A stretch of DNA of 64,000 nucleotides from Sphingomonadales bacterium (GTDB lineage: Bacteria > Pseudomonadota > Alphaproteobacteria > Sphingomonadales > Sphingomonadaceae), in the NCBI GenBank assembly GCA_013297725.1, contig JAAFIB010000002.1, forward strand, positions 45,212 to 109,211, read 5' to 3'. Below the pieces are notes generated by a model that worked only from the letters and a program-made list of their open reading frames with translations, ran no database searches and had not been told where the DNA came from. A program made the translations under genes and the position numbers. Positions 42,408-62,035 of the stretch are shown here, one piece after another. How positions within the stretch are numbered: position 1 is the first letter of the stretch; the number at the start of each line of letters is the position of its first letter.

Positions 42408-42437
42408 TATGGCAGCTTTGTTGGACAGTCCGGAAAG
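42408..42437 (+). repeat. Module-junction motif, site A (relaxase | pilus)
   Basis: TATGGCAGCTTTG (42408-42420) and ACAGTCCGGAAAG (42425-42437), starting 8 bp after the relaxase stop. Confidence 0.5.
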
Positions 42438-42538
42438 TCCACTTTTACAGGCGAACGTGCAGTAAGCGGCGGTTCGTTCAGTTGCTGGTTCCGGTATTGC
42501 TCTATTGCGTCCTCGTTTGCCCATCTATTGGTTAAACT

Positions 42539-42847
42539 TCAAAATTGGTACCATACTATAGAGGCTCTGTTCAAAAAACGGGCTTTCATCCTCCCGAGCA
42601 ACCTCGATTGCTGCAACAAACGCTCATCGCTATCGCCATATTGCCGAACACGACTGGTGATAAAACGATAGCAATCATCATTTTGGAATAAGCAGTTACG
42701 AAACCTTTGCACCGCTTGGTACGACAGCTGACTAGGAAGCTGCGGTCGCAATTGTAAAATTGCACGAGTCGATTCGGTAGCAAATATAACTTTAGCTGTA
42801 TCAAATTCTGACGATTGATCTTTGATGCTATGAAAATTTAACTTCAT
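42539..42847 (-). CDS. Small AT-rich hypothetical ORF
   Basis: 102-aa ORF divergent from the pilus operon; no recognised motif. Confidence 0.35.
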   Translation of the reverse strand: MKLNFHSIKDQSSEFDTAKVIFATESTRAILQLRPQLPSQLSYQAVQRFRNCLFQNDDCYRFITSRVRQYGDSDERLLQQSRLLGRMKARFLNRASIVWYQF

Positions 42848-42880
42848 TTAAGCGCGTCTGAGCAGGAATTTTTGCTTACG

Positions 42881-43002
42881 ATCTTAAATTTAAGATATTG
42901 ATATATATAAATAAATTTAGAGACCTTAAAAGCCTCGATTGACAGTCAGAACTCTATCGAAAAAATAAGCCTTGAAAGATAACAGGGTTTACAAGATGTT
43001 AA
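42881..43002 (+). promoter_or_regulatory. AT-rich pilus control region with a 16-bp palindrome and a CtrA-like box
   Basis: ATCTTAAATTTAAGAT (42881-42896) is a perfect palindrome; TTTA-N7-TTAA at 42988-43002. Confidence 0.45.
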
Positions 43003-43121
43003 GAGTGTAACAAAAGTTACATGTCAGTTCGCTATCGAACTATCATCAAAAATATGGGTCGCAACATACTTTGATGACGGCATCTCACAAAGATGCAGTC
43101 TATAAAGAACAGGGATTTGTG

Positions 43122-43673
43122 ATGCGGGGCATATTACTATGCGCTGCATGGGTGGTGTTACTTATGGCGCCCGTTCATGCACGCGATGATGGCTACGGCC
43201 ATGGCAGAAGCGATGACGCCAAACTTGAGCTAAAAATAAAAGGGCGCATCTCGCCTAAATGCGAGATTGATCTGCCCAATCGCCGTGTTCAAAAAATTCT
43301 TACCGATGGTCCTGGTAGTGAGAGCATAGGCTTTCGTTTAAACTGCAACCAGCGATTGTCGGTTTCCATGACCTCGACCAATGGCGGATTTGAACATCCG
43401 ACCCGGGATCGTGATCAGGCCTTTGAAGGCTTTACCAATTTCTTGCCGTACCGCGCACAATTCAGCGTCAATGCGAGCAACGCTGTGCCGGTCACAGCCA
43501 ACAGCGTTTCGATGCTGGGCGGGGCTGGCGGCAGCATAGGAACAATCCCCTTTAACACCACCGGTACGCTCGAGCTCAGCTGGGCTCCTGAACTGCCGCT
43601 GCTTGGGGGAACCTATGAAGACACAATTGAAATCCGCGTTTCGGGCGCGGGTGAAAACGAGATTCCAAGGTGA
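43122..43673 (+). CDS. Csu/spore-coat-U-like minor pilin
   Basis: Signal peptide, Cys pair ('PKCEI', 'LNCNQ'), C-terminal 'GGTYEDTIEIRVS' strand. Confidence 0.75.
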   Translation: MRGILLCAAWVVLLMAPVHARDDGYGHGRSDDAKLELKIKGRISPKCEIDLPNRRVQKILTDGPGSESIGFRLNCNQRLSVSMTSTNGGFEHPTRDRDQAFEGFTNFLPYRAQFSVNASNAVPVTANSVSMLGGAGGSIGTIPFNTTGTLELSWAPELPLLGGTYEDTIEIRVSGAGENEIPR

Positions 43674-43757
43674 ATAGCCTTGAGAATATCAGTGCGGACA
43701 ATGGGGTGCGCGCTGATGCTGGACATAACACTCTAGCGACCCATTAGGAGTAAAGTT

Positions 43758-44294
43758 ATGAAGAAGTTTGTTATTTTGGCAGCAATGGCTGCTGTTTCAA
43801 CACCTGCAATGGCTGCAACCGCTCAAGATCCGGTTGTTGTTTTTGAAGGCAAGCGTGCTCAAGTGTGTGAAGTCCGCAACTTTCAAAATACCGTCAATTT
43901 CGGCACATTGGATAATGTTGGCAACGGCGCAGCAGTTTCTGACACGATCAACCTGTTCTGCAATGTGCGTTTCACAGCCACCATCGAATCAGACAACGGC
44001 TTTTTGAAGCTTGATTCGCTTGTCGCTGCAGCATTGCCAACCAGCCAGTCGAATCACACAGCGCAGGGTTATTCAGGCTTTTCCTCGGCGCTTGATTATC
44101 AAGTGCAGACTGTACTTGGAAACGCCGACACAAGCTTGATTGGTGCTGACGTACCTGTAAATCTGGGCGGTATGCAAAACCCAATCAACACAAGCACAAC
44201 GATCACCTATGACACGCTGCCAGAATCGCAGCCACTGCTTGGTGGTACCTATGAGGATACACTTACCCTCAACGTAACCCCGATCGCTTTCTAA
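43758..44294 (+). CDS. Csu-type major pilin
   Basis: Strong AGGAG RBS, signal peptide, Cys pair ('QVCEV', 'LFCNV'), 'GGTYEDTLTLNVTPIAF'. Confidence 0.8.
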   Translation: MKKFVILAAMAAVSTPAMAATAQDPVVVFEGKRAQVCEVRNFQNTVNFGTLDNVGNGAAVSDTINLFCNVRFTATIESDNGFLKLDSLVAAALPTSQSNHTAQGYSGFSSALDYQVQTVLGNADTSLIGADVPVNLGGMQNPINTSTTITYDTLPESQPLLGGTYEDTLTLNVTPIAF

Positions 44295-44304
44295 GGCGAC
44301 ATAG

Positions 44305-44338
44305 GATGGGCCGGCACGGTGTAGCCGGCCGGCCCGTT
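44305..44338 (+). terminator. GC-rich stem-loop after the major pilin gene
   Basis: GGGCCGGC (44308-44315) pairs with GCCGGCCC (44328-44335); no U-tract. Confidence 0.55.
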
Positions 44339-44401
44339 CAATATTTCAAGTCGATAATATGCCGGTCCATGTGATCGGCGAAATGTGTTTCAGGGGGATT
44401 T

Positions 44402-45241
44402 ATGTTTCGAACCGTAGCCCGAAAAATGGCCTATGGCCTTGTGTGCGTATCAATGTTGATCGCGCCTCTTAACTCTGCTTTTGCAGGCGCCCTATCGGTC
44501 GAGCCGCTTTTCATTGAACTGGCCCCCGGCGCAAGCGGTGCGGTTCGTGTCCGCAACACATCCGACGCACCGATGACTGTGGAATTAACTGTCGATGAGC
44601 GTTCCATCGATGTTAACGGCAAACAAAGCCGGACCGATGCTGAAGAGGCATTTATCCTTTTTCCGCCGCAAGGCGTAATCGCACCACAGCAAGTGCAGAT
44701 TTTTCGTATCCAGCCGCTAACGAGTGATAGCGAGAAATCTCGATCCTATTTCTTGACTGTAAAGCAGCTGCCCGTAAAGCTTGCTCCGATTGAGGGCGGA
44801 GGGACGCGCCTTCAGGTTGTTTTTGCATTCGACGTTGCGGTGCACAACACCCCGCGTGGTTCAAAATCCAATATGCAATTTGTCAGTGCATCTCTTGACA
44901 CGACCCAAATTGAAAAGGCCCCTGCTGCTGATGCACCGCCACAGGCGCGGGATGCTCAAAAACCAACGCCAGAGTTTGAAACTATACCAGCCGTCGCCGT
45001 AAAAATCCGTAATGATGGCAATAAATATCTGTATCTTCACGAATATGATTATGTCGTGACCGGTATTGATGAAAATGGCGCGAAGGTTGAAATTCCGTCA
45101 TGGGATGAAAATGCGATCATCGACGCGGCTAAAGTTAGCCTTGTCCAACCAGGCGCCGAACGCATCTTTAAGCTACCCTTGCGCGGTCAACCTACGTTGA
45201 AAAGTGTTGATGTGCGAATCCGTCAGCGGGCCGGAACGTAA
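44402..45241 (+). CDS. Periplasmic pilus chaperone (PapD/CsuC-like)
   Basis: 'LSVEP...VRVRN', 'FPPQGVIAPQQVQIFRI', 'RSYFLTVKQLP', 'NDGNKY'. Confidence 0.85.
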   Translation: MFRTVARKMAYGLVCVSMLIAPLNSAFAGALSVEPLFIELAPGASGAVRVRNTSDAPMTVELTVDERSIDVNGKQSRTDAEEAFILFPPQGVIAPQQVQIFRIQPLTSDSEKSRSYFLTVKQLPVKLAPIEGGGTRLQVVFAFDVAVHNTPRGSKSNMQFVSASLDTTQIEKAPAADAPPQARDAQKPTPEFETIPAVAVKIRNDGNKYLYLHEYDYVVTGIDENGAKVEIPSWDENAIIDAAKVSLVQPGAERIFKLPLRGQPTLKSVDVRIRQRAGT

Positions 45242-45249
45242 GAAGTCAT

Positions 45250-47727
45250 ATGTTGACTATAGGTTCCAGTAGCTTGCTGCTATCTGCAGCGCCTGCCGCT
45301 TTTGTGGCGGCACAAGCGACACCTGTCGTGGAAGCCGATCTTCGGCCGGTTCGCGCTTTCGAAATAACATTGCCGGTAACACTCGACGAGCGATATCTGG
45401 GTGACTTGTCGGTTAAGGTCGAGGGTGATGCAATCAGCTTTGACGGCAACCGATTGGTCGAGGTGCTGCGATCTGATTTAACACCACCGGCTGTTGAAGC
45501 ACTAATCGCTCGCATCGTTGATGGACGTTTGACTCCAAAAAGTGCCACGACGCAGGATATTCTTGTTGAATATAATTCATCCCTGCAAGAAATTCGGGTG
45601 ACAACAGCGGTTTCCGCGCGGCAACGCCGGGTTATAGATTTCCGGGTATCGCCAAGCGAAGACAAATCTGATCTGTCCAAGCCATCCGGTTTCTCCGCCT
45701 TTCTGAATGCAGCGGCAAGCTATCAATATGTTTGGGAAAATCAGGTCGGTGGCAGCAAGGGCGAAACAGGTCGGCTACCGATTAGCGGAACATTGGAATT
45801 GGGTGGCCGAATAGCCGGAGAAAAAGGCATTGCCTTTATCAGCAGGCACAATTTTCAAGAGGGTCGTGGACGCTTTCTACAGCGGACCGAAACACAATTG
45901 ATTTATGATCGCCCGCAAGATTTGTTGCGCGTGACCGCAGGTGATCTGCGTTATCGCGGTGCAAACTTTCAGTCCCTGCCCCGACTGGCCGGCGTCACCG
46001 TTGAACGCTTTTTCGGTTTGGAGCCATCTCGGTTATTCAGGCCGATTGGACAGACAAGCTTTGAAATTGAGCGCCCATCGACCGTTGATGTTCGGATTAA
46101 TGGTGTCGTCTTAAGGCAATTACTGCTTCAAAGTGGTCGTTATGATCTGCGTGATTTTCCGCTGGTTCAGGGTGCGAACGATGTTGAACTTGTCGTTCGC
46201 GACGATACCGGACGCGAACAGATTATTTCGAATAGAAACTTCTTTGATTTCAACCTGCTGGAACCTGGCCTGACCGATTTCTCTGTCACTGCCGGGGTTC
46301 GTGCACGCAACGGCGGAAATGGCATTCGTTATAGCAATGATTATGCGCTTTCCGCCTTTGTACGTAGAGGGCTGTCCAATACACTGACAGCTGGCGCCGA
46401 CGTCCAGTTTGACAGGCAGGGAGTTACTGGCGGGGTTAGCGCTGTTTGGGCATCACCCATCGGAGTATTTCGCGTTGAAGGCGCTGGCAGCAAACGCAAC
46501 GACATCGGTTCGGGCTTTGCCGCAGACGTTGGCTATTCAATTGCCGGACGGTTGAACCAGAATAAATGGCGTTGGACGGCGCAGATCAACGGCCAAGTAC
46601 AATCTCGCCGTTTTGCCACCTTATCCGACATAGTCTTGCCCGACATCGGCGAATTGCGTCCCAACGCTTGGTCGGTGAATGGCAATTTCCAACTAAACAA
46701 CGCCAAATGGAACATCACGGCATCGGGCCAGATGGATAAAGGCCGTGGCACTTCTCCCGATCGCAAAAGCGCGCTTATCGGCGCAACCTATTCGCTTTCA
46801 CCGACGCTTTCCGTGGGCACCTTTGGTAGATATGCTGACAATGGCACACGCAAAGAAAAAGCAGCATTCCTGCAGCTGAATTGGCGACTTGGAAAGAACC
46901 AAAGCGTAAGGGCGTCCTATGACACAGGCGACCGCGAAGCGCAGCTGAATTATCGTTACTCGCCATCCGCTTCAGTCGGCGCGACACAGGCAGATTTTTC
47001 GATCAAGCGCGATGCGCGCAATAATGATTTGAACCTTACCGGCTCCGCCTTCCATACCGGCAACCGTTTTGAGGCAACGGCGCAGCACGATGTATTTACC
47101 ACGGCAAACTTCTCATCAGACCGGGTGCAAACGAGCCGCGCTTCTGTCGGAACAAGCTTAGTCTTTTCGGGCAATAAATTTGCGATGTCACGTCCCATCC
47201 GCGAGGGATTTGCCATTATCTATCCGCACAAGTCGCTCAAAGGCAAAACGATAAAGGTTGATCCAACGGATAATGGTCCGCGCGCACTAAGCGACGCCTT
47301 GGGACCGGCCGTTGTGCCTGATATATCAACCTATAGCCGTTCATCGTTGTATATCGAAATTGTTGATCTGCCTGCTGGCTACGACCTTGGTGCAGGGCAA
47401 TTCAGTCTGAAAGCTCCGTTATATTCGGCTTATAACTTGCAGGCTGGATCGGCCGCTTCGGTTACACTTTTGGGGAAAGTGGTTCGCGGACCTAAAAAAG
47501 AACCGGTCGTATTGATGGGCGGTAAACTAGAGTCATTGGACGGAACGTACGCTGAGCCGATTTCTGTGTTCACCAATCGTAGCGGTCGTTTGGCCGGAAC
47601 GGGATTGAAACCCGGAAAATACCGCCTGACCCTATTTACCGACCCAGCATATGTCACCGAAATCACCATAGAGGATGACGGCAAAAATCTGGTCGATATC
47701 GGCGAATTGAGGATAGAAGAGCCATGA
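45250..47727 (+). CDS. Outer-membrane fimbrial usher
   Basis: 825 aa; 'AGDL', 'LAGVTVER', 'PSTVDVRING...L.SGRYDLRD.PL..GANDVELVV.D.TGREQ'. Confidence 0.9.
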   Translation: MLTIGSSSLLLSAAPAAFVAAQATPVVEADLRPVRAFEITLPVTLDERYLGDLSVKVEGDAISFDGNRLVEVLRSDLTPPAVEALIARIVDGRLTPKSATTQDILVEYNSSLQEIRVTTAVSARQRRVIDFRVSPSEDKSDLSKPSGFSAFLNAAASYQYVWENQVGGSKGETGRLPISGTLELGGRIAGEKGIAFISRHNFQEGRGRFLQRTETQLIYDRPQDLLRVTAGDLRYRGANFQSLPRLAGVTVERFFGLEPSRLFRPIGQTSFEIERPSTVDVRINGVVLRQLLLQSGRYDLRDFPLVQGANDVELVVRDDTGREQIISNRNFFDFNLLEPGLTDFSVTAGVRARNGGNGIRYSNDYALSAFVRRGLSNTLTAGADVQFDRQGVTGGVSAVWASPIGVFRVEGAGSKRNDIGSGFAADVGYSIAGRLNQNKWRWTAQINGQVQSRRFATLSDIVLPDIGELRPNAWSVNGNFQLNNAKWNITASGQMDKGRGTSPDRKSALIGATYSLSPTLSVGTFGRYADNGTRKEKAAFLQLNWRLGKNQSVRASYDTGDREAQLNYRYSPSASVGATQADFSIKRDARNNDLNLTGSAFHTGNRFEATAQHDVFTTANFSSDRVQTSRASVGTSLVFSGNKFAMSRPIREGFAIIYPHKSLKGKTIKVDPTDNGPRALSDALGPAVVPDISTYSRSSLYIEIVDLPAGYDLGAGQFSLKAPLYSAYNLQAGSAASVTLLGKVVRGPKKEPVVLMGGKLESLDGTYAEPISVFTNRSGRLAGTGLKPGKYRLTLFTDPAYVTEITIEDDGKNLVDIGELRIEEP

Positions 47728-48614
47728 ACATATCAATAATTTCTCGCCTAATACTGGTCTTTACGATGACAGCTTTCATCACTTCATCGCCACTGGCGGC
47801 ACGTCCGAAAGATACAGCCTGTGATCTGGATATTCAGGAACTGGGTGAAGCGAAAATCAACCATTATGATGCACTTTCCGGGGGTGATTATCTTGAACCG
47901 ATCCGGCTGCGTTTGCGTAACAAAGGAGATGCAATCTGCATTGGTGTTCTAAAGATTACGCGCACAGCGTCATATCTACAGCTGGACGGACCCCAAAATT
48001 ACACGATGGACTACAGCATTATCGATCAAACCAATCTGGGCCAGATACTGCTTGATCCCATCTCTCAGCAGACACAGGAAGTTCCAATATCTGTGGGTCC
48101 GAACGCGACGCTGGATATCAACCCGCGCCTTTTTGTCCGCGGCGGGCAGCCCGGGCGCCAAGGACGCTATTTTGCGACATTGCGCGCGACCATAGATTTG
48201 GGAGGCAACCAAGATTCAGTCGAGACCGAATTCAATGTGTCGGCGCAAGTTCAGGCAAGAGCGCAGGCCAATTTTGTTGGTGGCCGCAATGCGACGTTAG
48301 ATTTAGGGGAGCTTGCCCCCAACGTGTCTGGCACAATAGCGATGCAGGTGCGATCAAGCGCCGACATTGACGTTGAAATCAGTTCGGAAAATGACGGCAG
48401 CCTGATCACCAGGCGCGGTCAATTCGAAATACCCTATTCGATGACAGTTGATGGCCGGACCGTCGATCTAGTCAACGGTACCCGCATCAACATGCTGATA
48501 CAAAACAGCATTAGGGGTCAGGCGTTACCAATCATTGTCACCGTTGGCGAATTCGCCAATGCGCCGGTGGGCGAATATGGCGACGTAGTAACGTTCCGGA
48601 TCAGCGCGCGCTGA
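47724..48614 (+). CDS. Two-domain tip adhesin / pilin (CsuE-like)
   Basis: Signal peptide, Cys pair in the N-domain, C-terminal 'GEYGDVVTFRISAR'; coupled to the usher. Confidence 0.7.
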   Translation: MNISIISRLILVFTMTAFITSSPLAARPKDTACDLDIQELGEAKINHYDALSGGDYLEPIRLRLRNKGDAICIGVLKITRTASYLQLDGPQNYTMDYSIIDQTNLGQILLDPISQQTQEVPISVGPNATLDINPRLFVRGGQPGRQGRYFATLRATIDLGGNQDSVETEFNVSAQVQARAQANFVGGRNATLDLGELAPNVSGTIAMQVRSSADIDVEISSENDGSLITRRGQFEIPYSMTVDGRTVDLVNGTRINMLIQNSIRGQALPIIVTVGEFANAPVGEYGDVVTFRISAR

Positions 48615-48626
48615 TCCGGAATGTGA

Positions 48627-49058
48627 TCAAAACGCGATTGGTGATATCGTAACAGTCAGGCTTGATCCGAACTGCTGCGCTTGAGCTTCGTTGACACCAG
48701 CCAAAACAACCTGATCCGCAGCGTTGGCGGTCGGGTTCGCAAGTGGTTTCAGCACAGTAGTATCCTGACCAAGCGAAACGGCTGAACCGCCAAACGACAA
48801 TTGTGCTGTCGCCTCTGGTGTACTGTGCGTTAGCGACAGCTGGAACCGCAAGTTGCAATATTGTTCGACGCTACCGAGTGAAAAGCTATCAGCCGATAGC
48901 CGGCTGAAAGATCCGCTGATCCCGGCTGAACAGTTCGTTGGAACTTGTGCCGAAATTCGAGTTTGATAAGACTTGGCCTGAGCAGGTGCGGCAGATAGAC
49001 CTGCAGCAGCAGTTGCTACAATTAATGAACAGCGAGCCAAATTCCAGATTGAACGCAT
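48627..49058 (-). CDS. Convergently transcribed pilin-like protein
   Basis: AAGGAG RBS, signal peptide, Cys pair ('TNCSAG', 'QYCNL'), ends 'LTVTISPIAF' like the major pilin. Confidence 0.7.
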   Translation of the reverse strand: MRSIWNLARCSLIVATAAAGLSAAPAQAKSYQTRISAQVPTNCSAGISGSFSRLSADSFSLGSVEQYCNLRFQLSLTHSTPEATAQLSFGGSAVSLGQDTTVLKPLANPTANAADQVVLAGVNEAQAQQFGSSLTVTISPIAF

Positions 49059-49182
49059 AAGTCATCTCCTTTGACACACGCGTCTAAGGGAAGACTGACG
49101 AATTCTTAGTATACGAGCATGATTAACGCACATTAACTCCTTTTGAACTACACGGCGTTGCTTATTGGAAATAGCGTAGATG

Positions 49183-49250
49183 AACGTTAGGCAAGTTCTG
49201 GCGGACACAAAACGCCGACCGAACGGCAGGAAAGTTTAGCGAAAACAGCT
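49183..49250 (+). repeat. Module-junction motif, site B (pilus | LysR operon)
   Basis: AACGTTAGGCAAG (49183-49195) and AACGGCAGGAAAG-TTTAGCGAAAACAG (from 49222). Confidence 0.5.
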
Positions 49251-49408
49251 AAAGCCTCTTCCGTCGATAAGCATGGAGTCAAATGGTCTGTTTGGGAGAC
49301 GTGCGCGGAACACGTCAACACACCCAAACCTTTTGCGAACAGCCACTAAACAGGAAATGCACGCTGCCGATGTGCATTACACTGAAAAGCCATATTCTGT
49401 CTTCAAAA

Positions 49409-50317
49409 TCAAATTCCTGCAATCTGCGTTCTTATCCTTGACGTACAAAATTCGATAAACTGCTCAATCGCTTGCGTTCGTATTCCACTCTTCGCTGCGA
49501 GCGAGACTTTGTGGCGATCGATAGTCCATTCTGGAAGCACCGGTATCAATTTTCCGGACGCAAGATGGGGATCAGCAACAAATGTCGGCAGTCTTGCGAT
49601 ACCCAATCCGTCAAGCGCAGCTGCCAGCAAAAAATCTGTTTCGTTGGTTTCCAGCTTGGGTGCAAAGTCCAGCTGAAATTCTTTGCCCGCTGCTGTTCGC
49701 ATCAACCATCGGCCCCTTAGACTGGTTCCGCAAAGGTTGGACAGGATTGCATAATCACAAAGATCCGAAGGCGCTTCAATCGTCGCTTTTTGAAGATAGC
49801 TAGGGGCAGCGTAAAGCTTTGCGTCCAACATCCCCAATTCCCAGGCATCCAAAGAAGCCGGCACTGAAATTCCAACACAAAATGAGATGTCGATCCGATC
49901 ATCTTCGGGATCGAAGATTCGATCTGATAGAGTGACCTCGATGCTCACAAGCGGATATTGGCTGCAAAATTCGGATAGGATTTGAGGAAGAAAGCCACGC
50001 CCAAATATCCGTGGTGCCTTGATCCGGACCGCACCGCGCGTAACCTTATCCTTCTTTGAAAAGAGAGCACCAATGCCTTGAAAACTGTCGATACCGCCAT
50101 GCGCGGTATCGAAAAGACTGCGCCCGATAGCGGTCAGCTCAATGCCATTTTGATCACGCGTGACCAGAGCAGTGCCGAGTTGCTGTTCCAGCTTTGCGAC
50201 ATGACGGCTGACGGTGGATTTTGGCATGCTCAGATAGCGCGCCGCTTTTGCAAGGCCGCCCAATTCAATAGCCGCTACAAAGGTGCGCAAGGCGTTGAGG
50301 TCAATTGATCGTTCCAT
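49409..50317 (-). CDS. LysR-family transcriptional regulator (CrgA/DmlR-like)
   Basis: HTH 'LRTFVAAIELGGLAKAARYLSMPKSTVSRHVAKLEQQLG', 'GIARLPTF'. Confidence 0.93.
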   Translation of the reverse strand: MERSIDLNALRTFVAAIELGGLAKAARYLSMPKSTVSRHVAKLEQQLGTALVTRDQNGIELTAIGRSLFDTAHGGIDSFQGIGALFSKKDKVTRGAVRIKAPRIFGRGFLPQILSEFCSQYPLVSIEVTLSDRIFDPEDDRIDISFCVGISVPASLDAWELGMLDAKLYAAPSYLQKATIEAPSDLCDYAILSNLCGTSLRGRWLMRTAAGKEFQLDFAPKLETNETDFLLAAALDGLGIARLPTFVADPHLASGKLIPVLPEWTIDRHKVSLAAKSGIRTQAIEQFIEFCTSRIRTQIAGI

Positions 50318-50326
50318 TTATGCAAC
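50311..50326. promoter_or_regulatory. Candidate LysR binding site (T-N11-A)
   Basis: GTTCCATTTATGCAAC, GTT...AAC dyad overlapping the lysR start codon. Confidence 0.5.
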
Positions 50327-50436
50327 CTTAATACCATTTTTGCTTACTAGATAGCATTATCAGAACGCGTTATCCAAACCACACGGATGTGGGGGATCCA
50401 CCGTCAAAAGTAATAGCGCCAAATGGAGTCTCCCCT

Positions 50437-53852: not shown

Positions 53853-54301
53853 AAATGGCGCCTTATTACACTGCCGAATATAGCCTCTCCGCCGAAGACG
53901 ATCTTACCGCCCGTCAGGTGATCGCACGGCTAAACCACGCGCTCGATGCGGCTGACTATAAATCCTATGCGCAGATGTTTGCAGCTGACGGCGTTTTTGT
54001 ATCGGGTTTTGGCAATGCTGTGGGGCCGGAACAGGTCGAGGCTGCCTTGGGACAAGTCGCTCCCTTCATAACCAACAAACGCCATGTTGCGGGCAACCTT
54101 GTGATCAGCGGCAATGGTGATGAGCTCGTCGTGACGAGCTACCTTATCGTCTTTGAACGGGACGCAGAGCTTAAATATGTCGGCTCCGCCGTGAATGAAG
54201 ACACCCTCAAGAAAGTGGACGGCCGCTGGCTAGTTGCCCGTCATGACTCAACTCTGGATCCAGCAACAGCGGCCTATATCCAGTCAGTGATGAATCCGTA
54301 G
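53849..54301 (+). CDS. SnoaL/NTF2-like protein
   Basis: 'YAQMFAADGVF', 'RHVAGN', 'DTLKKVDGRWLV'. Confidence 0.82.
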   Translation: MKMAPYYTAEYSLSAEDDLTARQVIARLNHALDAADYKSYAQMFAADGVFVSGFGNAVGPEQVEAALGQVAPFITNKRHVAGNLVISGNGDELVVTSYLIVFERDAELKYVGSAVNEDTLKKVDGRWLVARHDSTLDPATAAYIQSVMNP

Positions 54302-54311
54302 GAAAAAGACT

Positions 54312-55172
54312 ATGTCGCTAGAGGATTTTGAACATCACCGCGTAAGAAACGGTACTATCGGCCTTCACGCTGTCTCGCTCGGTAGAGGCGACCCCGTCAT
54401 TCTCATCCACGGCTTTCCGCAACATTGGTGGATGTGGCGCGGTACAATGCAAGCGCTGGCAAAGGCGGGTTATCGCGCCATCGCCATTGATCAACGTGGC
54501 TGTGGCGGATCCGACATACCACCGACTGGCTATGACAAGGCAACGCTGGCATCCGATGTCGTCGCTGTCATGGACGCGCTCGATATCCCACGCGCGGCTG
54601 TTGTCGGTTATGATCATGGCGGTGGGACAGCGTTGGCGCTGGCCTATACCGCACCAGACCGTGTCGAGCGCCTGACGGTCATTGAATATGCGCCACCCGG
54701 TTTTGGCTATGAGATGGGGCTGACGGCGGCACCCGGCAATGTGAACTGGCAGCTGGCTTTCTTCACACAGCCCGACGTTGCGATCCAGTTTATTGGCGGG
54801 AAGGAACGCGAGTTGCTGGCATGGTATTTCTGGCATTGGGCCTATAACCCCGATGCTGTCGATCAGGCCGATTTCGAGGTCTATGTGCGGCAGTTGCAAA
54901 AGCCCGGCGCGCTGCGCGGCGGCATGATGCATTTTGCTAGCGTTTTTGAGGATATGGCGCTGTTCAAAGGCTGGTCGGAGAGCGGAAGACTGGCGATGCC
55001 CTGCCTTGGTATTGGCGGTGAGATCGCAGCAGGCGTCTATAGCGAGATGGCCTTAAAGGCCTTGGCCGACAATGTACGTGGCACCGTGATCGCCAAAGCC
55101 GGCCATTGGATCGCAGAGGAACAACCCGAAGCGCTGAACCAATGCTTGCTCGACTTTCTCAGCGCTGGCTAA
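54312..55172 (+). CDS. Second alpha/beta hydrolase, epoxide hydrolase/dehalogenase-like
   Basis: 'HGFPQ', 'DQRGCG.S', 'GYDHGG', 'GHWIAEEQP'. Confidence 0.88.
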   Translation: MSLEDFEHHRVRNGTIGLHAVSLGRGDPVILIHGFPQHWWMWRGTMQALAKAGYRAIAIDQRGCGGSDIPPTGYDKATLASDVVAVMDALDIPRAAVVGYDHGGGTALALAYTAPDRVERLTVIEYAPPGFGYEMGLTAAPGNVNWQLAFFTQPDVAIQFIGGKERELLAWYFWHWAYNPDAVDQADFEVYVRQLQKPGALRGGMMHFASVFEDMALFKGWSESGRLAMPCLGIGGEIAAGVYSEMALKALADNVRGTVIAKAGHWIAEEQPEALNQCLLDFLSAG

Positions 55173-56416
55173 TCGCTGTCCTAGCGCTAGCTGCAGCCAG
55201 CCCGTGTATTGCGCAAGAGGCGAAAGAAAGCAGCGCCAAGGACGTAGCGGTCGGACTTGACGCACGGCTGCGTTATGAGGTCATTGACCCGGCAACCTTT
55301 GGCAACGGACCGCAGGATAGCGGCGGTTACATGCTCTGGCGTATCGCGCCCCATGCAGAGGTGGAGATCGCACCGGAGTGGCGTGTTCATGCGCAAATAT
55401 TCGCCGCCGGACAGTTGGGCCGCAACGGCGGTGCAAGGGCGAATGACCGCAATGATCTTGATCTGACGCAGGCCTATGTCGAATGGCGGCCAAATGCTGG
55501 AAGCTTTGTGCGCGTAGGTCGGCAAGAAATGGCGCTGGGTTCCGGACGGTTGCTTGCCGCTTTGGACGGGGCGAATGTCCGTCGGCGCTTTGACGGCGTG
55601 CTGGGGCAAAGGCGCGTTGGCGACTGGACCGTGATTGGGCTCGCGGCTTCGCCAGTGCTGGTGCAGCCTGGGGTGTTTGACGATGACAGCGATCTCAATC
55701 GTCTGGCGGTGGGCACAGGCGTGGTGCGCGGTGATGCCAGTCGCAACAGCGAAGCTCTTTATGCCATCCGCACAGAAAGTTTTACGCCATTTTTTGGCGC
55801 AGCTGCCGGGCGGCAAGAGCGCTTCACTCTTGGTGCGCGTATCGTAAGGACAACGCCGCGCCTGTATGTAGAGACGGAGGCGTTGGCGCAATTTGGCAAT
55901 GCGCAAGATCGTAGGAACGTTCGCGCTTGGGCGATGGCCGGCGAAGTGCGCGCTCCTGTTGCAAAAGCGGGCAGTGCGCAGCTATTGGCCGGGGCCAAGT
56001 TCAGCATAGCAAGCGGCGATGCCAATCGCGGCGATCAACGCATTACGGGTTTCGACCCCCTATTCCCGAACCCAGCCTTTACAGGGTCTTTCCCGATCTT
56101 TGCGCCAACCAACATTGCCAGCATTGATCCGTCAATTTCGCTACAATGGTCCAACGGCAATCGCGTTGGCATTGATGTTGCGCTGATGCAGCGTCTGACA
56201 ACGCGGGATCAGCTTTACACATTGGGCGGCACTGCCATTACAACCCGCGGGTCTGGGCGCAATGTCGGTGCGTTATGGGCGCTGACTGGCAGCTACCGGA
56301 TCAACCACATGCTCAGCCTGAATGGCAGCGCCATCTGGCTTAACATGGGCAGCAGTTTCGCCGCTGATCAACGCGACACACTTGGCGCGTTTCTCAATCT
56401 TAATCTCGCGCTTTGA
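55142..56416 (+). CDS. Alginate-export (AlgE-like) family outer-membrane porin
   Basis: Signal peptide, 'LTQAYVEW', 'RVGRQEM', 'RRFDG', 'FDPLFP'; start uncertain. Confidence 0.8.
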   Translation: MLARLSQRWLIAVLALAAASPCIAQEAKESSAKDVAVGLDARLRYEVIDPATFGNGPQDSGGYMLWRIAPHAEVEIAPEWRVHAQIFAAGQLGRNGGARANDRNDLDLTQAYVEWRPNAGSFVRVGRQEMALGSGRLLAALDGANVRRRFDGVLGQRRVGDWTVIGLAASPVLVQPGVFDDDSDLNRLAVGTGVVRGDASRNSEALYAIRTESFTPFFGAAAGRQERFTLGARIVRTTPRLYVETEALAQFGNAQDRRNVRAWAMAGEVRAPVAKAGSAQLLAGAKFSIASGDANRGDQRITGFDPLFPNPAFTGSFPIFAPTNIASIDPSISLQWSNGNRVGIDVALMQRLTTRDQLYTLGGTAITTRGSGRNVGALWALTGSYRINHMLSLNGSAIWLNMGSSFAADQRDTLGAFLNLNLAL

Positions 56417-56428
56417 AAGGCATTTCTG

Positions 56429-57361
56429 ATGATCGACCGCCGTACTATAATCCTAAGTGGCGGTGCCGCGCTCTTGGCGTCGGCTTGCGCTCCGGTAAAT
56501 GGACCGGCATCCAAAACTGCTGGTTCAACCCCAACGCGTCGCGTCCTGTGGGCGGCCAATGTTCGCACCAAATCGCTCGCTGATCGGCTGATCGCTGCGC
56601 GCGCAGGCCAATTCACCCATATGTCGATCTTTCCTATTGATTGGCAAAGCTGGCGCAACAGCGGCCTTTCCGTCGAAACGATGCGTTCCATGATCGAGGA
56701 TACCGGTGTCAAAGTGCTGGCGATTGATCCCTTTGTTCAATGGATTCCGGGCTTTGCCATCCCGGATTCCTATCCACCGCAAAATCGCGGGTTCATCCAG
56801 TTCGGCGAAGCCGCCATCTTGCGCATTGCCGAAGAGGCCGAGGCTGAAGCAATCAACTGCGTTGAGGGGCTAGGACAAGCGCATCCAAAAGCGTTGCTGG
56901 TAGATGCTTTTGGCGGTTTTGCAGATCGCGCCGGGCAACGCGGATTGCGGGTCACGCTGGAATTTATGCCGATTTCCTCTATTACTGGCTTGCGCGAAGG
57001 TTGGGCAATTATTGATGGCGCAAACCGGCCCAATGCCGGGCTGTGTTTTGACACTTGGCATTATTTCCGATCGTACGAGGACACTGAAACATTGGCGCGC
57101 ATTCCCGCCAACAAGATCTTCGAAGTCCAGCTCGCCGATGCCAAAAAACAGCAGCAGGTCCCCGACCTGATCGAAGACCTGCTCCGATTCCGCCTCCTAC
57201 CGGGCGACGGCGAGTTTGATATTGCAGGCATTACGGCAGCACTTAAGGCCAAGGGAGCTTGGACCTCAGTAGGCCCAGAAGTGTTCGCGGATTGGATCGA
57301 TAAACTCGAACAGCGCAACGTGGAAGAACAATGCAGCGCGGCATTGCAGAGGTTTATTTAG
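56429..57361 (+). CDS. Sugar-phosphate isomerase/epimerase TIM barrel with Tat lipoprotein signal
   Basis: 'RR' plus 'LASAC'; metal motifs 'LEFMP', 'FDTWH', 'VQLAD', 'LLPGDG', 'PEVF'. Confidence 0.85.
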   Translation: MIDRRTIILSGGAALLASACAPVNGPASKTAGSTPTRRVLWAANVRTKSLADRLIAARAGQFTHMSIFPIDWQSWRNSGLSVETMRSMIEDTGVKVLAIDPFVQWIPGFAIPDSYPPQNRGFIQFGEAAILRIAEEAEAEAINCVEGLGQAHPKALLVDAFGGFADRAGQRGLRVTLEFMPISSITGLREGWAIIDGANRPNAGLCFDTWHYFRSYEDTETLARIPANKIFEVQLADAKKQQQVPDLIEDLLRFRLLPGDGEFDIAGITAALKAKGAWTSVGPEVFADWIDKLEQRNVEEQCSAALQRFI

Positions 57362-57470
57362 TGGATTTGATTTCGGTCTATCGCTCGCCAGTCAACGACA
57401 AATTCGACGATTTTTCTAGGAAATGGCGACCGATCAGTGATCGATTGGCTGTTGTGTGCAGAGTTGAACG

Positions 57471-57535
57471 AACGTCTGCTTTCAGGGAGCGATATAGGCA
57501 CATTTAACGTCCGGAATGTTAGCGGCAGCAGTTTC
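57471..57535 (+). repeat. Module-junction motif, site C (LysR operon | iron module)
   Basis: AACGTCTGCTTTC (57471-57483) and AACGTCCGGAATG-TTAGCGGCAGCAG (from 57506). Confidence 0.55.
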
Positions 57536-57541: not shown

Positions 57542-58729
57542 TTATTGCGTCGTTGCGGGCAGTTGTGGATCGAATTTGTTGCCGTTGGGGTTTTCGCCCC
57601 GAAGGTTCCCGGCGACTTTTCTTCGCTCCCTCCGCCGCAAAAACAGAGTGATTCCGGCCAGTGGGAGCGTCAACAGCGCAATCCCCTGCAGAACGATCAA
57701 GACTTCGCCGAACAGACCAAGCAACCTGCCATTGTGAAGCTCGACCAGATAGGTGAGCACAGTATCGCCCGCCTTCATCTCCGCCTCCCCGCGTGAGAAC
57801 AGGATACTGCCGCACTTGGCATCGACGATGACCTCGACATTGCCGCGCGCAGGGACCGTTGATTGCGTAGGCCGCAGCCAGATTTGATAAACAGGGTTCT
57901 GGCGCGTGGGCAGGAAAAGTGAGGAGAGCTCCATGCCCGGAAACTTCGCGCGCGCGGCAGCAAGAGCATCTCCGGCGCGTGCCACTATGTTCGGTGCGCA
58001 TACAGATTTCGGTGCTTTTGCCGGATCGAACTCAGCGGAAGTTCCCAACGGGCTGGCAATGACCTCAGCCACGTCAAATCGGGTCAGCATGAGGCCCGTC
58101 ATGGCCGCAAGGATCAGCAACGGCGCCGCCCAAAAACCGATTGCTGCATGGAACCGCCTGTGCCCTGTCACGCTAGAGGGTTTGGGGATAATCATTGCCG
58201 CCTTGATACGCTTCCGTCCCGGCCACCAGAGATACAGCCCTGACAATGCGAAGCCGAAAATGATGACCGACAGCGCCACCAGCACCCATGATGAGATGGC
58301 GGGCGGCAAAAACAAGCTCATGTGCAGTTTGAGCGGCAGCATCGACCAGCTGTCCTCTGCGATGAAATGCGCCAGCGGCTCGCCGGTGTAGGGATTGACC
58401 GTTACCACGCCATGCGCGTCACCGCCATCGAGGCGCACCGGCGCGTAGATGATCGTCGGCGCGGAAATCCGCATCGGCGTTGCGCGCGGACCGAAATAGC
58501 CCTCGACACTTGGCAGCTTGCCATATTTCGCCTCAGCCTTCGCCAGCCAGATTTCGGGTGCGGCATAGGGCTGGTTCTGCATGGGCACACTGACCTTGTT
58601 CGCTCCAAACTCCCATTCGTAGAACGTCGTCGAGAACACCATGCCAATGCCCGACAGCGCAATGAGCGCGACGTAGAGCCCTGCCACAATTCCGACCCAG
58701 CGGTGAACAAGAACAAGGGCTTTGCGCAT
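57542..58729 (-). CDS. PepSY-associated TM protein
   Basis: 'VHRWVG', 'VNPYTG', 'LH.SL', 'SGLYLWWP', 'H..IG.W', 'LH.G'. Confidence 0.92.
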   Translation of the reverse strand: MRKALVLVHRWVGIVAGLYVALIALSGIGMVFSTTFYEWEFGANKVSVPMQNQPYAAPEIWLAKAEAKYGKLPSVEGYFGPRATPMRISAPTIIYAPVRLDGGDAHGVVTVNPYTGEPLAHFIAEDSWSMLPLKLHMSLFLPPAISSWVLVALSVIIFGFALSGLYLWWPGRKRIKAAMIIPKPSSVTGHRRFHAAIGFWAAPLLILAAMTGLMLTRFDVAEVIASPLGTSAEFDPAKAPKSVCAPNIVARAGDALAAARAKFPGMELSSLFLPTRQNPVYQIWLRPTQSTVPARGNVEVIVDAKCGSILFSRGEAEMKAGDTVLTYLVELHNGRLLGLFGEVLIVLQGIALLTLPLAGITLFLRRRERRKVAGNLRGENPNGNKFDPQLPATTQ

Positions 58730-60777
58730 CAGAACTTGGCCTCCAGGCTGATCCCGTAATTGCGGGGGTCGTTGGCAAAGCCGAAGTCGACCGCAAAAAG
58801 GTTGGTCAGCGCGAAATCGTTAAAGGCATTGCGGACATAGGCCGATGCCGTGATGCCGTTCCACTCGTAAGAAATCTTGGCATCGACGTTGGTAGATCCA
58901 GCGATCCCAAGCGCAGGCGTATTTGCATCGTCAGAGAAATAACGGCCATTGGTGCGCAATTGCGCGTCAAGTTTGAGGCCCGCTGTTGGTTCCCAGTCGA
59001 ACCCTGCCGAAAAGCTCCATTTCGGCGCACTGGCAAATTGGCTGCCGCGGATCGGGTCCAGCGGATCCGGGGTCTGCGTGATCTTGGTGTTGAGCAGCCC
59101 AACCCCAGCGCGCAAGTTGAATGTGGGAGTTATCCGGGCGTCGAGTTCAAGCTCGGCTCCGTAGCTCCGTGCCGATGGCACATTGCCCACACTGACTTCG
59201 AACACCGTTTGCCCCAGCGGATTGGTGGTGACAGTCGTTGTTGATCGCTGCGCGTTCTTGAAGTCGGTATAGAAGACGTTGCCATTCAATTGGACGCCAC
59301 TGGCAATCCCCGCACGGACATACGCCTCGTAATTCCAGAGCGTTTCCGCGTCGAATTCGTCGCGCAGTCCGGTATCGAACGAGATTGTCGTGCCACCCGG
59401 ATTGAAAGCACGTTGCGCAAACGCACCGATGTTCACGAGATCTGAGACTTCATAAGAGAGTGCGATTTTGGGCAGCAGCGCATCGAAGCTGCGCTGATAA
59501 TCCACCGCAAAGATGTCGAGCGCGCCAACACGGTTCTGCCGGTCGCGTTGGTAACGCAGTCCGCCAGTGACGGTGAGCCGTGGCAATGGCTTGATCGCGA
59601 CTTCGCCAAAGATGCCAAGGCTCTGCTGCTTGTCAGTGAAGTTGCCCAACCCAAGAAACGCACTCAGGTCGATAAACTCGGTCTGGTCGGCATTCAGATG
59701 ATACACACCGCTAAGGACATTGAGGCTATCGCTCAGTTTGGCCGAAATGATGCCTTCAAAGGTGAACTCTTTGGTCTGGACCAGCGCGTTGCCTTGCCCG
59801 GGCGATGACAGCCGCGTCACGCGACTGTTTGTGTAGCTTGGCGTCAACGTCACAAGAACACCTTCACGATCGCCATAAGACACGATGCCCGTGATCGCAT
59901 CGACATTGGTCCGCCAATAGCCGCCAACATCGTCATAGCGACGTTCTTCGAACGGCGGGATGATGACCTGTCCTTGGGGCGCTTCGGTCTCCAAATGCGT
60001 ATAGCCGACGTCGATTCTCAGGTCAGGAATGCTCGTCGGCGTGATTAGCAGCTTGACCCGACCGTTGGTGAAATTGTCCGCCCGTTCGTCATAGCCAAAG
60101 TTAAAATTGGGAATGTCGAACTTGACCCAACTATTCTTGCGCCGCCAATCGAACGTGGCCCGCGCAGCGATCTGATCGTTGACGATTGGCGCGGAGACCA
60201 TGCCCGACAACTGATAGGTGTCGTAATTGCCCACCAGTCCGCGCACCCGTGCTTCAGGCTCAAAGCTCGGATCGAACGTCTTAATGAAGATCGCCCCAGC
60301 AATCGAATTGCGCCCCTGTGTCGTCGTTTGCGGAGTGCGGAACACCTCCACGCGCTCGACATCCCAGAGCGAACTCAGCCCATAGATGAACTCATTGAAG
60401 CCAACCGCACGACCATCGATTTGCACCGTTGCACGGGGTCGCGAGCCGCCAAGGAACGCATCGGCACCCCGAAGCGCACCTGTCGTATCCTGTCCTCGGA
60501 TTGATGGTCCCTGATCTTCTGACCCAAGCTGGATATTGGGAACGAAACCAAGCAGGCTGTTGATATTGTCCAGCGACCGTTCTTCGAGGCGGTCAGCGGT
60601 TTCAACGGCGACGCTTGACGAAGTTTCATTGACGCCGCGTGCGACGCGTTCGCCGGTGACGATGATTTCACTCTGCTCAGCCTGTTCAGCGTCGGGTGCA
60701 GTTTCGGCCCATGCTGGGGAGGCGCAGGCGGCCGCACAAAGCGCAGATGAAAACAGCAAGCAAGACTTGTAAAACAC
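58729..60777 (-). CDS. TonB-dependent receptor (probable iron-chelate uptake)
   Basis: TonB box 'EIIVTG', plug 'PSIRG', 'VEVFRTPQ.T.QGRNSIAGAI', C-terminal 'YGISLEAKF'. Confidence 0.95.
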   Translation of the reverse strand: MFYKSCLLFSSALCAAACASPAWAETAPDAEQAEQSEIIVTGERVARGVNETSSSVAVETADRLEERSLDNINSLLGFVPNIQLGSEDQGPSIRGQDTTGALRGADAFLGGSRPRATVQIDGRAVGFNEFIYGLSSLWDVERVEVFRTPQTTTQGRNSIAGAIFIKTFDPSFEPEARVRGLVGNYDTYQLSGMVSAPIVNDQIAARATFDWRRKNSWVKFDIPNFNFGYDERADNFTNGRVKLLITPTSIPDLRIDVGYTHLETEAPQGQVIIPPFEERRYDDVGGYWRTNVDAITGIVSYGDREGVLVTLTPSYTNSRVTRLSSPGQGNALVQTKEFTFEGIISAKLSDSLNVLSGVYHLNADQTEFIDLSAFLGLGNFTDKQQSLGIFGEVAIKPLPRLTVTGGLRYQRDRQNRVGALDIFAVDYQRSFDALLPKIALSYEVSDLVNIGAFAQRAFNPGGTTISFDTGLRDEFDAETLWNYEAYVRAGIASGVQLNGNVFYTDFKNAQRSTTTVTTNPLGQTVFEVSVGNVPSARSYGAELELDARITPTFNLRAGVGLLNTKITQTPDPLDPIRGSQFASAPKWSFSAGFDWEPTAGLKLDAQLRTNGRYFSDDANTPALGIAGSTNVDAKISYEWNGITASAYVRNAFNDFALTNLFAVDFGFANDPRNYGISLEAKF

Positions 60778-60826
60778 ACGATTTCCCGACGATTCTGATT
60801 TTCGATGGATCGTCAGTAATCAATAT

Positions 60827-60845
60827 GCGAATGATTATCAATAGC
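60827..60845. promoter_or_regulatory. Fur-box-like operator
   Basis: GCGAATGATTATCAATAGC matches GATAATGATAATCATTATC at 14/19 positions, 50 bp upstream of the receptor gene. Confidence 0.7.
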
Positions 60846-60850
60846 GTATT

Positions 60851-60870
60851 GGAAGGTGGTAGCCGTCATT
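60851..60870 (-). repeat. Module-junction motif, site D (iron module | TetR)
   Basis: Minus strand AATGACGGCTACC-ACCTTCC, starting 3 bp after the tetR stop. Confidence 0.4.
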
Positions 60871-60873
60871 TGT

Positions 60874-61476
60874 CTAGCGAAGATATCCAAGCACCGCCCG
60901 CACCGCCTCGTCTTCAGCGACATCCAACCGTGGTGGGGACAAATTGGCCCAAGCGTCGGTTACCGCGCGAACAAGTGCCGGGAGCGTTCGCTCCGCATGG
61001 TCGGCATCAAGTGGCCTGATCTCCCTGGCAAATCGCGCAAGTAAGGCTGCGACCAACGCGCCGCCACGGTCCAGATAGCCATTCAGGATGCTGTCAATTG
61101 GAAGGCGAGCTTCTTCATGGTCAATCGCAGATGCAAGCAGGCTGTCGTCATGGTGATGCTGCATGGCGGCACGGACCACTGCGCGAATGACGGTTTCCAA
61201 ATTCTCGCCGCTCACTCGACTAACTGCGGCAGTAAGGGCTTCCAATTGCCGTGCCTGTTGTCGATGAATCAGCGCGACCATCAGCGCATCCTTGTTAGGA
61301 AAATATTGATAGAGGCTGCCAATGCTCACGCCCGCGCGTCCGGCCACGACATTGGTGTTGAACGCAGCCAAACCGCCTTGCGCAATTATGTGAGCAGCTG
61401 CCTCAACAATCGCGTCATGGGTGACCAGAGCGCGCGCCTGACGCGGGGCTTTACGGGGAGAGAGGGGCACAGGCAT
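60874..61476 (-). CDS. TetR/AcrR family regulator
   Basis: 'PRQARA..T.DAIVEAA', 'VAGRAGVSIGSLYQYFPNK'. Confidence 0.93.
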   Translation of the reverse strand: MPVPLSPRKAPRQARALVTHDAIVEAAAHIIAQGGLAAFNTNVVAGRAGVSIGSLYQYFPNKDALMVALIHRQQARQLEALTAAVSRVSGENLETVIRAVVRAAMQHHHDDSLLASAIDHEEARLPIDSILNGYLDRGGALVAALLARFAREIRPLDADHAERTLPALVRAVTDAWANLSPPRLDVAEDEAVRAVLGYLR

Positions 61477-61562
61477 TCACTTCAAATCCTCGCGCAGAAT
61501 GCGAGTATATAATGTGAGCATATATTCATATTATGCAAGCACATTGAGACGGAGGAACGTTG

Positions 61563-61898
61563 ATCATGAGCAGCAACACAAACCCGCGCATAGATTTCAA
61601 GACATTCTATGAAACGGCCTATCGGTCGGATCACCAACACCTAGCGAATCTCGCGCTTCACATTGTGGGCGTCATTGCGGGTTTGGCGTTGCTTATCGCC
61701 AGCGTAACCGTCTGGCCGCTTTGGAGCGCGCTCGCTTTTCCCATCGTTCATGTCGTGCCGGGATTGCTGGGTCACCGGCTGTTTGACCGGGACGAGGTGC
61801 TCGGTGACGTCCGCCTCACCCGCACCGACTTTCCGTTATGGTGGTTCCTGATCGCCAATCATCTAATGGCAGTGAGAGTGCTCACACTGCGGTGGTGA
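61563..61898 (+). CDS. DUF962/Mpo1-like membrane protein
   Basis: 'Y..DH....NLALH.VG', 'GH..F'; divergent from tetR; GGAGG RBS. Confidence 0.75.
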   Translation: MMSSNTNPRIDFKTFYETAYRSDHQHLANLALHIVGVIAGLALLIASVTVWPLWSALAFPIVHVVPGLLGHRLFDRDEVLGDVRLTRTDFPLWWFLIANHLMAVRVLTLRW

Positions 61899-61992
61899 TG
61901 CAACCTCCAGTCTCCACGTCCAACGAGAGCAGTCTTGTGTGCTCCACGCAACATCATCTGTGCGACGCTAGCAGAATAAACCGCGTGTTCCG

Positions 61993-62035
61993 AAGGTCCG
62001 TTTGAGCCTTTGAAACGGCAGCAATGTTACCGATC
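61993..62035 (+). repeat. Module-junction motif, site E (TetR module | ABC permeases)
   Basis: AAGGTCCGTTTGA (61993-62005) and AACGGCAGCAATG-TTACCGATC (from 62014), next to the permease stop. Confidence 0.5.

Follow-up and report, generated by a model that had tools for sequence, protein, structure and literature searches.

Integrons and the pdif modules of Acinetobacter are the described systems closest to the one considered here, which is built around a repeated element of ~75 bp that we call the Box. Three copies of the Box lie in a stretch of 64,000 nucleotides from a draft Sphingomonadales genome (G000; 3.02 Mb, 55% G+C), which is taken from contig C61 (45212-109211) and is referred to below as the window. 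The Box system works like integrons or pdif modules but fails the defining features of both, and it appears to be an integron-like means of stacking genes that has not been described before; a full-text literature search found no description of the element or of the system. Few if any integrons are known from Alphaproteobacteria. Sphingomonads nonetheless carry mosaic catabolic islands and plasmids, the assembly of which is usually credited to insertion sequences.

Comparison with described systems

Integrons are composed of IntI, attI and attC, and include sedentary chromosomal forms and clusters of attC sites lacking integron integrases (CALINs). As in an integron, a tyrosine recombinase gene lies beside one Box, and repeated sites, mostly co-oriented, part unrelated genes that include typical cargo such as GNAT, VOC/glyoxalase and SnoaL genes. 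Arrays also occur without the recombinase, as in CALINs. The differences lie in the enzyme, the site and the cargo. The Box recombinase has only 210 amino acids, consists of a catalytic domain alone and scores 20.3 bits with TIGR02249, against a cut-off of 265, and no IntI-sized match was found near the Box arrays. The Box lacks the attC hairpin and the R''/R' symmetry, and the likening of these sites to attC in an initial annotation of the window does not hold, with neither a hairpin nor inverted symmetry found. Box modules are multi-gene, carry their own regulators and hold genes in both orientations, and the recombinase gene has a site on either side of it.

The pdif modules of Acinetobacter resemble Box modules in that short double-stranded sites bound discrete multi-gene modules found in different contexts. 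A pdif site, however, is 28 bp long, consists of two inverted 11-bp arms, one for XerC and one for XerD, around a 6-bp spacer, alternates in orientation and is served by the host Xer proteins, whereas the Box is ~75 bp long, contains direct repeats, has no inverted arms beyond chance in or next to Box B and is linked to a dedicated small recombinase. In Tn4430 (TnpI and its internal recombination site, IRS) and in the integron attI1 site (DR1 and DR2), several recognition copies, some of them direct, lie beside the recombinase gene within ~70-120 bp, and the Box may likewise present repeated direct recognition sequences by a recombinase gene. In those sites an inverted-repeat core is evident, and each element carries a single site; the Box is present dozens of times, and an inverted core was not detected in it. 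The ResD/rfsF system of F and the Cre/loxP system of P1 also combine a small tyrosine recombinase with an adjacent site, and homologues of the Box recombinase are frequent on plasmids, but in both systems a replicon has a single site, and cassette arrays are absent.

The Box element and its copies in the window

The Box is a real element that is clustered, tightly linked to a recombinase gene in position and orientation, and coincident with synteny breaks. We favor the explanation, at a probability of about 0.6, that Boxes are the recombination sites of this small recombinase and that site-specific recombination stacked multi-gene modules. The element consists of Box A (TGAACGAACGGCAGCTTTCA), a spacer of ~20 nt and Box B (GAACGnCnGCwwwGTyrGCGG..C.G.C), and the edges of conservation are sharp at both of its limits. 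Two direct copies of a ~13-19-bp sequence (GAACGnCnGCwww...) are present per element, ~35-39 bp apart, and the central triplet of Box B varies, giving AAW- and TTT-centre variants. Model R1 was built from the copies in G000 and gives too low a score to Box B variants that have a TTT centre; therefore, a Box B weight matrix was built from 78 sites of both AAW and TTT types. True copies score at least 20 bits with this matrix, and a threshold of at least 12 bits already gives 247 matches in the genome, mostly within open reading frames (ORFs). Scanning the window with R1, filters off, returned exactly three copies, all on the plus strand:

49175-49244, plus strand: Box element 1 (R1 E 7e-11; nhmmer 3e-7), with Box A at 49182-49200 (GAACGTTAGGCAAGTTCTG) and Box B at 49221-49241 (GAACGGCAGGAAAGTTTAGCG)
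57460-57533, plus strand: Box element 2 (R1 E 1e-14), the best copy in the genome, with Box A at 57466-57485 and Box B at 57505-57525
61969-62041, plus strand: Box element 3 (R1 E 1e-6; Box B 21.7 bits), the weakest copy, with a Box A-like sequence at 61974-61992 and Box B at 62013-62032

Element 1 is located between the start of a minus-strand pilin-like ORF (48627-49058) and the stop of a LysR gene (49409), and the 22 bp CGAACGGCAGGAAAGTTTAGCG at 49220-49241 are identical to C83:82185-82206 of the same genome (BLAST E 5e-5). Its Box B continues into a perfect 6-7-6 palindrome (TTTAGC-GAAAACA-GCTAAA, within 49221-49262) that is absent in other copies. Element 2 begins 100 nt past the last stop of a nine-gene operon (57361) and ends ~10 nt short of the convergent stop of a PepSY_TM gene (57542), and element 3 overlaps the stop (62034-62036) of a minus-strand DUF3526 ABC-2 gene.

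The initial annotation had placed a 13-bp motif, AAYGKCNGSWWWG, at every junction between unrelated modules, usually as a pair. The sequences listed are all present at their coordinates, with 60870 denoting the right edge of a copy on the minus strand (60858-60870), but the consensus fits exactly in only three of the nine copies (49222, 57506 and 62014), the others having one mismatch (42408, 57471), two (42425, 49183), three (60870) or four (61993). The consensus carries ~18 bits of information. Five exact matches occur in the window, where 0.55 are expected, and three of these five defined the pattern. Across the genome there are 78, of which 71 are inside ORFs, at a density of 0.031 per kb in intergenic and 0.025 per kb in coding DNA (approximate labels, as genes outside the window were called by a crude longest-ORF caller); without the three founders, the intergenic density is below the coding one. 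A density in core intergenic DNA equal to that at the junctions, which the annotation had named in advance as a refutation of its own proposal, is what the bare 13-mer displays, while the 75-bp element does not. As written and taken alone, the 13-mer is not a meaningful motif.

The motif unit is instead the bipartite ~75-bp element. Several of the 78 matches were extended by GTTRGCGG far above chance, and GAAY was present exactly 39-40 nt 5' of the 13-mer in 6 of the 11 copies first lined up; from this fixed spacing it follows that the pairs are the two boxes of one element. Pairing is real at three junctions (49183 with 49222, 57471 with 57506, and the pair around 62014), where the partners are Box A and Box B, and is a chance arrangement at 42408/42425. 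The TTA(G/C)CG continuation noted for some copies is part of Box B. The closeness to stop codons is true for 57506 and 62014, and the Boxes are not obviously decayed, as had been supposed. Only three of the five claimed junctions contain the element, those between relaxase and pilus and between the iron genes and TetR having chance copies, and among intergenic gaps of at least 60 bp in the noted range, 3/11 carry it. The chance copies, which fall outside the Box family, are:

42408-42437, plus strand: the copies at 42408 and 42425 (no R1 match; 7.5 bits with the Box B matrix)
60858-60870, minus strand: the copy at 60870 (no R1 match; -4.1 bits with the Box B matrix; three mismatches)

The gap at 60778-60873, between the TonB-dependent receptor and TetR genes, is an ordinary iron-regulated promoter region and not a module joint, because a Fur-box-like sequence, AATGATTATCAAT (GCGAATGATTATCAATAGCG), lies at 60826-60845, 5' of the receptor. 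The corrected map of the window contains three true sites and two modules bounded by them, and the remaining "copies" are to be ignored.

Abundance and arrangement of Boxes

Profile searches identified 24 Boxes in G000. The noted 19.6-kb region contains three where 0.16 are expected (P 5e-4), the 23-kb contig C86 contains six (P 3e-8), and the R1 scan found zero in the 36-kb core part of the window. Besides G000, 19 of 24 genomes of the same genus have the Box, with 0-40 copies each that cluster strongly, while 0/16 sampled genomes of other genera of the order have it; the recombinase was likewise found in 0/16.

Within clusters, Boxes part single genes or small groups of unrelated function. 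One such array, in G035, has a VOC/glyoxalase gene and a 94-amino-acid ORF between Boxes, and another, in G034, has AraC, MarR, SnoaL, homocysteine methyltransferase and GNAT genes and a MarR gene with an S41 peptidase. Whole genomes of other genera likewise show co-oriented Box arrays about their recombinase genes. In a Sphingomonas metagenome-assembled genome (MAG), two recombinase genes are surrounded by 10 of the 22 Boxes, over a span of 62 kb (501-563 kb), and nine of the ten are co-oriented. Mostly co-oriented arrays near the recombinase gene are found in G136 and G137, and inverted copies and multi-gene bidirectional modules occur; the window has three co-oriented sites without a recombinase gene. 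The claim that such sites part unrelated modules is borne out at the three module boundaries of the window and by the co-oriented arrays of its relatives. Two Boxes at C86:1155-1326 face each other 15 nt apart as an "empty" inverted pair, the right-hand flank of which is shared with C114:11213-11291, and similar inverted pairs are present in five further genomes (G004, G005, G016, G034 and G035).

A small tyrosine recombinase linked to the Box

The annotation had placed the responsible recombinase outside the window, and a tyrosine recombinase linked to the site was indeed found elsewhere in the genome. It is one of four tyrosine recombinases in G000, and the end of its gene (C114:11335-11964) is followed, after 40 nt, by a same-strand Box. 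The 210-amino-acid protein matches the catalytic domain only (PF00589, E 1.5e-21), with no NCBIfam model above cut-off, and public sources label it only as "integrase". All of the tyrosine recombinase catalytic residues of the Phage_integrase domain (R...HxxR...H...Y) are present, and alignment to residues 124-280 of XerD (1a0p) shows that the LRG, HSLRR, LLGHS and RY motifs, which hold the R, HxxR, H and Y residues, are kept.

Homologous loci number 79, are mostly 65-95% identical and come from Sphingorhabdus, Novosphingobium, Sphingomonas, Sphingobium, Croceicoccus, Sandaracinobacter, Stakelama and some Rhodospirillales, with several genomes having more than one copy. For a 70%-identical recombinase carried by a Sphingobium plasmid, the Box model detected no site, although diverged Box-like sequences could be made out by eye on both flanks of the gene. 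Applied to 76 of these loci, the Box model gave 69 matches, 62 of them co-oriented with the gene. The Box starts 45-49 nt past the recombinase stop, behind a conserved hairpin, at 22/76 loci, and lies 60-240 nt before the recombinase start at 15/76. With Boxes on both sides at homologous loci, the recombinase gene is therefore itself bracketed by direct Boxes. Among 41 sampled genomes, the recombinase was found in five, all of them Box-positive, while 15 others have Boxes without it and 21 have neither (Fisher one-sided 0.02, with no phylogenetic correction).

A serine-resolvase res site, suggested by a likeness of the Box to a TGTCCGATAATT half-site, was rejected, as the presence of PF00239 genes does not follow that of Boxes (G035 lacks such genes, and G009, in which there is no Box, carries four) and the genus consensus resembles the half-site less. 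The sole serine recombinase of G000 (a 211-amino-acid ORF, C1:32931-33353) lies 3.5 kb from a Box (C1:29367-29433), and no general link between resolvases and Boxes was found.

Modules and their boundaries

Core genes, including mreC, PBP2 and rodA, fill positions 1-36281 of the window, and accessory DNA begins after a tRNA-Lys gene. The features of this accessory region, apart from the Boxes, are as follows:

36371-36446: tRNA-Lys(CTT) gene, after which accessory DNA begins
39431-42399: TrwC relaxase split into two overlapping ORFs, with the relaxase domain at 39431-40282 and the helicase at 40090-42399
43071-48614: chaperone-usher pilus
48627-49058, minus strand: pilin-like ORF
49409-57361: module from Box 1 to Box 2, LysR gene plus nine-gene operon
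49409-50317, minus strand: LysR gene (Pfam)
50389-57361: nine-gene operon (Pfam: isochorismatase, two alpha/beta hydrolases, GST, ABM, SDR, SnoaL, alginate-export porin and a TIM-barrel protein)
57542-61898: module from Box 2 to Box 3 (Pfam: PepSY_TM, TonB-dependent receptor, TetR and an Mpo1-like gene)
from 62034: DUF3526 ABC-2 genes, the first on the minus strand with its stop at 62034-62036

The splitting of the TrwC relaxase suggests a frameshift or a sequencing error.

The whole nine-gene operon recurs in another species (G119, contig C180), where the protein of its last gene (56429-57361 in the window) is 82% identical. A Box lies 92 nt past this same gene in G119, in the same relative orientation as in G000. 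The intergenic DNA between gene and Box has diverged between the two genomes, both boxes are conserved, and similarity stops after GTTAGCGG. Beyond the Box, G000 continues with the PepSY and TonB genes, whereas G119 has an inverted Box, a three-gene P450 module and a further Box. On the regulator side a Box follows the LysR gene in both genomes, but this end is not comparable, because identity between the two LysR proteins is no more than 41% and an AraC gene is additionally present in G119. Within G000, three paralogous pairs are 70-90% identical from the right half of Box B outward and 30-50% identical leftward. Together with the homology to G015 described below, these comparisons place module boundaries within Box B, but not the crossover to the base. 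For the PepSY_TM module, a close homologue was found in 0/120 genomes of the same genus, and a DNA-level search of 60 same-genus genomes matched nothing at the 57-58 kb junction.

How modules may have been stacked

The proposal of the initial annotation that modules were stacked through recombination sites is partly supported, with a larger site, fewer junctions and no likeness to attC; recombination itself, recombinase binding, the crossover point, circular intermediates and present-day activity are what we infer. The three co-oriented ~75-bp Boxes of the window would serve as double-stranded recognition and recombination sites of the 210-amino-acid recombinase. Box A may be an accessory binding site, and Box B, with its variable A/T-rich central triplet, would hold the crossover. 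A circular module with one Box could then recombine with a resident Box, and successive insertions would leave modules parted by direct Boxes. It is possible in this manner to picture the LysR and operon module and the PepSY/TonB/TetR/Mpo1 module being stacked beside the tRNA-Lys island.

Several observations weigh against this explanation. No recombinase gene is present within the window, and 15 of the 20 Box-bearing genomes, including the richest with 40 copies, have no detectable recombinase, many of these genomes being incomplete MAGs. The genome-level association between recombinase and Box is confounded by phylogeny. Close inverted pairs of Boxes are common and are not predicted by simple co-directional stacking. 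A search in or next to Box B for an inverted-repeat core, on which tyrosine recombinases usually act, gave best arm matches averaging 4.5/7, compared to 4.4/7 in shuffles, and cores of the 12-7-12 or 7-6-7 type adjoining Box B were not above chance. The number of module comparisons between species with good identity is only one. The expectation that modules recur with their ends at the site stands for the operon, which ends at a Box in another species, but not for the ABC-2 genes to the right of Box 3, whose counterparts in G015 (72% DNA identity) are not accompanied by a Box. The homology between G000 and G015 starts inside Box B, at GCAATGTTA, and because of this and the missing Box, the ABC-2 genes look like resident DNA next to which Box-bearing modules may have been placed. 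A homologue of one G034 cassette gene (63% amino acid identity) occurs in G098 with no Box within 4 kb, which we regard as neutral evidence.

Alternative explanations

The main rival to recombination sites is a small selfish, MITE-like dispersed repeat (MITE, miniature inverted-repeat transposable element) that accumulates in tolerant intergenic DNA, especially between convergent accessory genes, and is perhaps moved in trans by the same recombinase or by another enzyme, so that it marks junctions without creating them. We consider this unlikely, if the most serious of the alternatives. It would account for copies in apparently core contexts (for example, 3' of recA, and between imuA and a nasT-like gene), for copy numbers of 0-40 among same-genus genomes, for close inverted pairs and "empty" pairs, for the facing of most copies toward gene 3' ends, and for the many Box-rich genomes without the recombinase. 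A MITE, however, differs from the Box in its ends: no terminal inverted repeats, target-site duplication or flanking conservation were seen around the Box, single elements are asymmetric (Box A to Box B), and no hairpin is present. The fixed position and orientation of the Box beside the recombinase in many genera, together with the co-oriented arrays, fit a site-specific system better, and homology breaks inside the element and not at its ends. The Box also failed the test for a hairpin palindrome of the repetitive extragenic palindromic (REP) or bacterial interspersed mosaic element (BIME) type. A separate and unrelated family of ~35-nt palindromic repeats is dispersed in G000, at C84:15095-15134 and more than 15 other places (90-100% identity), and also occurs in same-genus genomes.

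Less likely than a selfish repeat is a multimer-resolution site of a plasmid-type resolvase, in which case the chromosomal copies would be relics of integrated plasmid or integrative and conjugative element (ICE) DNA and not products of gene capture. Homologues of the recombinase are found on 345 plasmid records across many genera, the site directly adjoins the gene, as is generally known for ResD/rfsF of F and Cre/loxP of P1, and the relaxase of the window sits in the same island region as the Boxes. One resolution site per replicon suffices, however, while here there are 20-40 per genome, in arrays parting unrelated genes, and two co-oriented sites flank the recombinase gene itself; we therefore view a resolution function as improbable.

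More doubtful still is the alternative that the Box takes no part in recombination and binds a regulatory protein, for instance as an operator or insulator, the protein being either a regulator of acquired genes or the recombinase itself in the role of repressor. Two direct repeats ~3.5-4 helical turns apart, without RNA or single-stranded DNA structure, would suit such an element, and some copies do lie in promoter regions (C46:8633, 5' of a nasT-like gene, and L025, between divergent genes). Distance and orientation relative to gene starts are nevertheless inconstant, with most copies abutting gene 3' ends or sitting between convergent genes, and the Box coincides with synteny breaks. Known promoter and operator types gave no better account: a sigma-54 promoter (GG-N10-GC) fits only the C46 copy and perhaps 57506, with wrong spacing in most copies, and none of the EcfG/extracytoplasmic function (ECF) promoter, LexA box, CtrA box or Pho box matches consistently. 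A known RNA family is ruled out by an Rfam search, which matched only two tRNAs and placed the Box in no family, and by the missing consensus structure, the Box alignment yielding zero consensus pairs; folding of single-stranded DNA from both strands gave z-scores of -1.5 to +0.5 and no significant fold. A small ORF or leader peptide on either strand was rejected because most copies contain stops and the frames are inconsistent. "Truncated" Boxes ending at model position 58, once considered as hybrid sites, proved to be an artefact, such copies having a TTT centre in Box B where others have AAW.

A fortuitous likeness of intergenic sequences, which does account for the 13-mer in its stated form and for its occurrences at 42408, 42425 and 60870, is refuted for the three 75-bp elements by their E values (1e-6 to 1e-14) and by a family present in dozens of genomes.

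SOS-linked sequences near Boxes

A repeat family of ~260 nt, 78-92% identical and carrying a perfect alphaproteobacterial LexA box (GAAC-N7-GAAC), is also found in G000:

C138:16493-16757: ~260-nt LexA-box repeat
C101:5037-5301: ~260-nt LexA-box repeat
C96:17857-18100: ~260-nt LexA-box repeat
C105:50370-50536: ~260-nt LexA-box repeat
C25:4034-4275: ~260-nt LexA-box repeat
C65:26451-26690: ~260-nt LexA-box repeat
C84:12802-13008: ~260-nt LexA-box repeat

In at least four copies, a Box with its Box B side toward the LexA box lies ~50-60 nt away; in the copy on C96 the distance is ~210 nt. Of 23 exact SOS boxes in the intergenic DNA of the genome, six or seven adjoin Boxes, and these LexA boxes may place something read across the site under SOS control. 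Homology between the repeat and the upstream region of the recombinase was considered and rejected, as only an 11-mer is in common. One 165-bp gap in G000 (C46:8596-8706) holds a Box together with an SOS box, GTTCATTATATGTTC, 5' of the imuA-imuB-dnaE2 operon. In the same gap, a sigma-54-like sequence (GGCAC-N5-TTGC) overlaps the end of Box B, 45 nt before the nasT-like response-regulator gene.

Implications for sphingomonad genomes

A broader proposal, which we put forward tentatively and with less than even confidence, is that Sphingomonadales possess a second, integron-independent platform for gene capture. Here, the 210-amino-acid recombinase and its ~75-bp non-palindromic bipartite sites would insert, excise and shuffle whole multi-gene modules, including their regulators, and would thereby build islands in chromosomes and plasmids, among them the tRNA-Lys island of this genome, with arrays that lack a recombinase being serviced in trans. 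If the explanation is correct, a tyrosine recombinase would be acting on a site without an obvious inverted core. The Box model, combined with the small recombinase, would provide a practical marker of module boundaries in sphingomonad genomes, and a site-specific system that moves whole regulated operons would represent another assembly route for degradative and transport modules.

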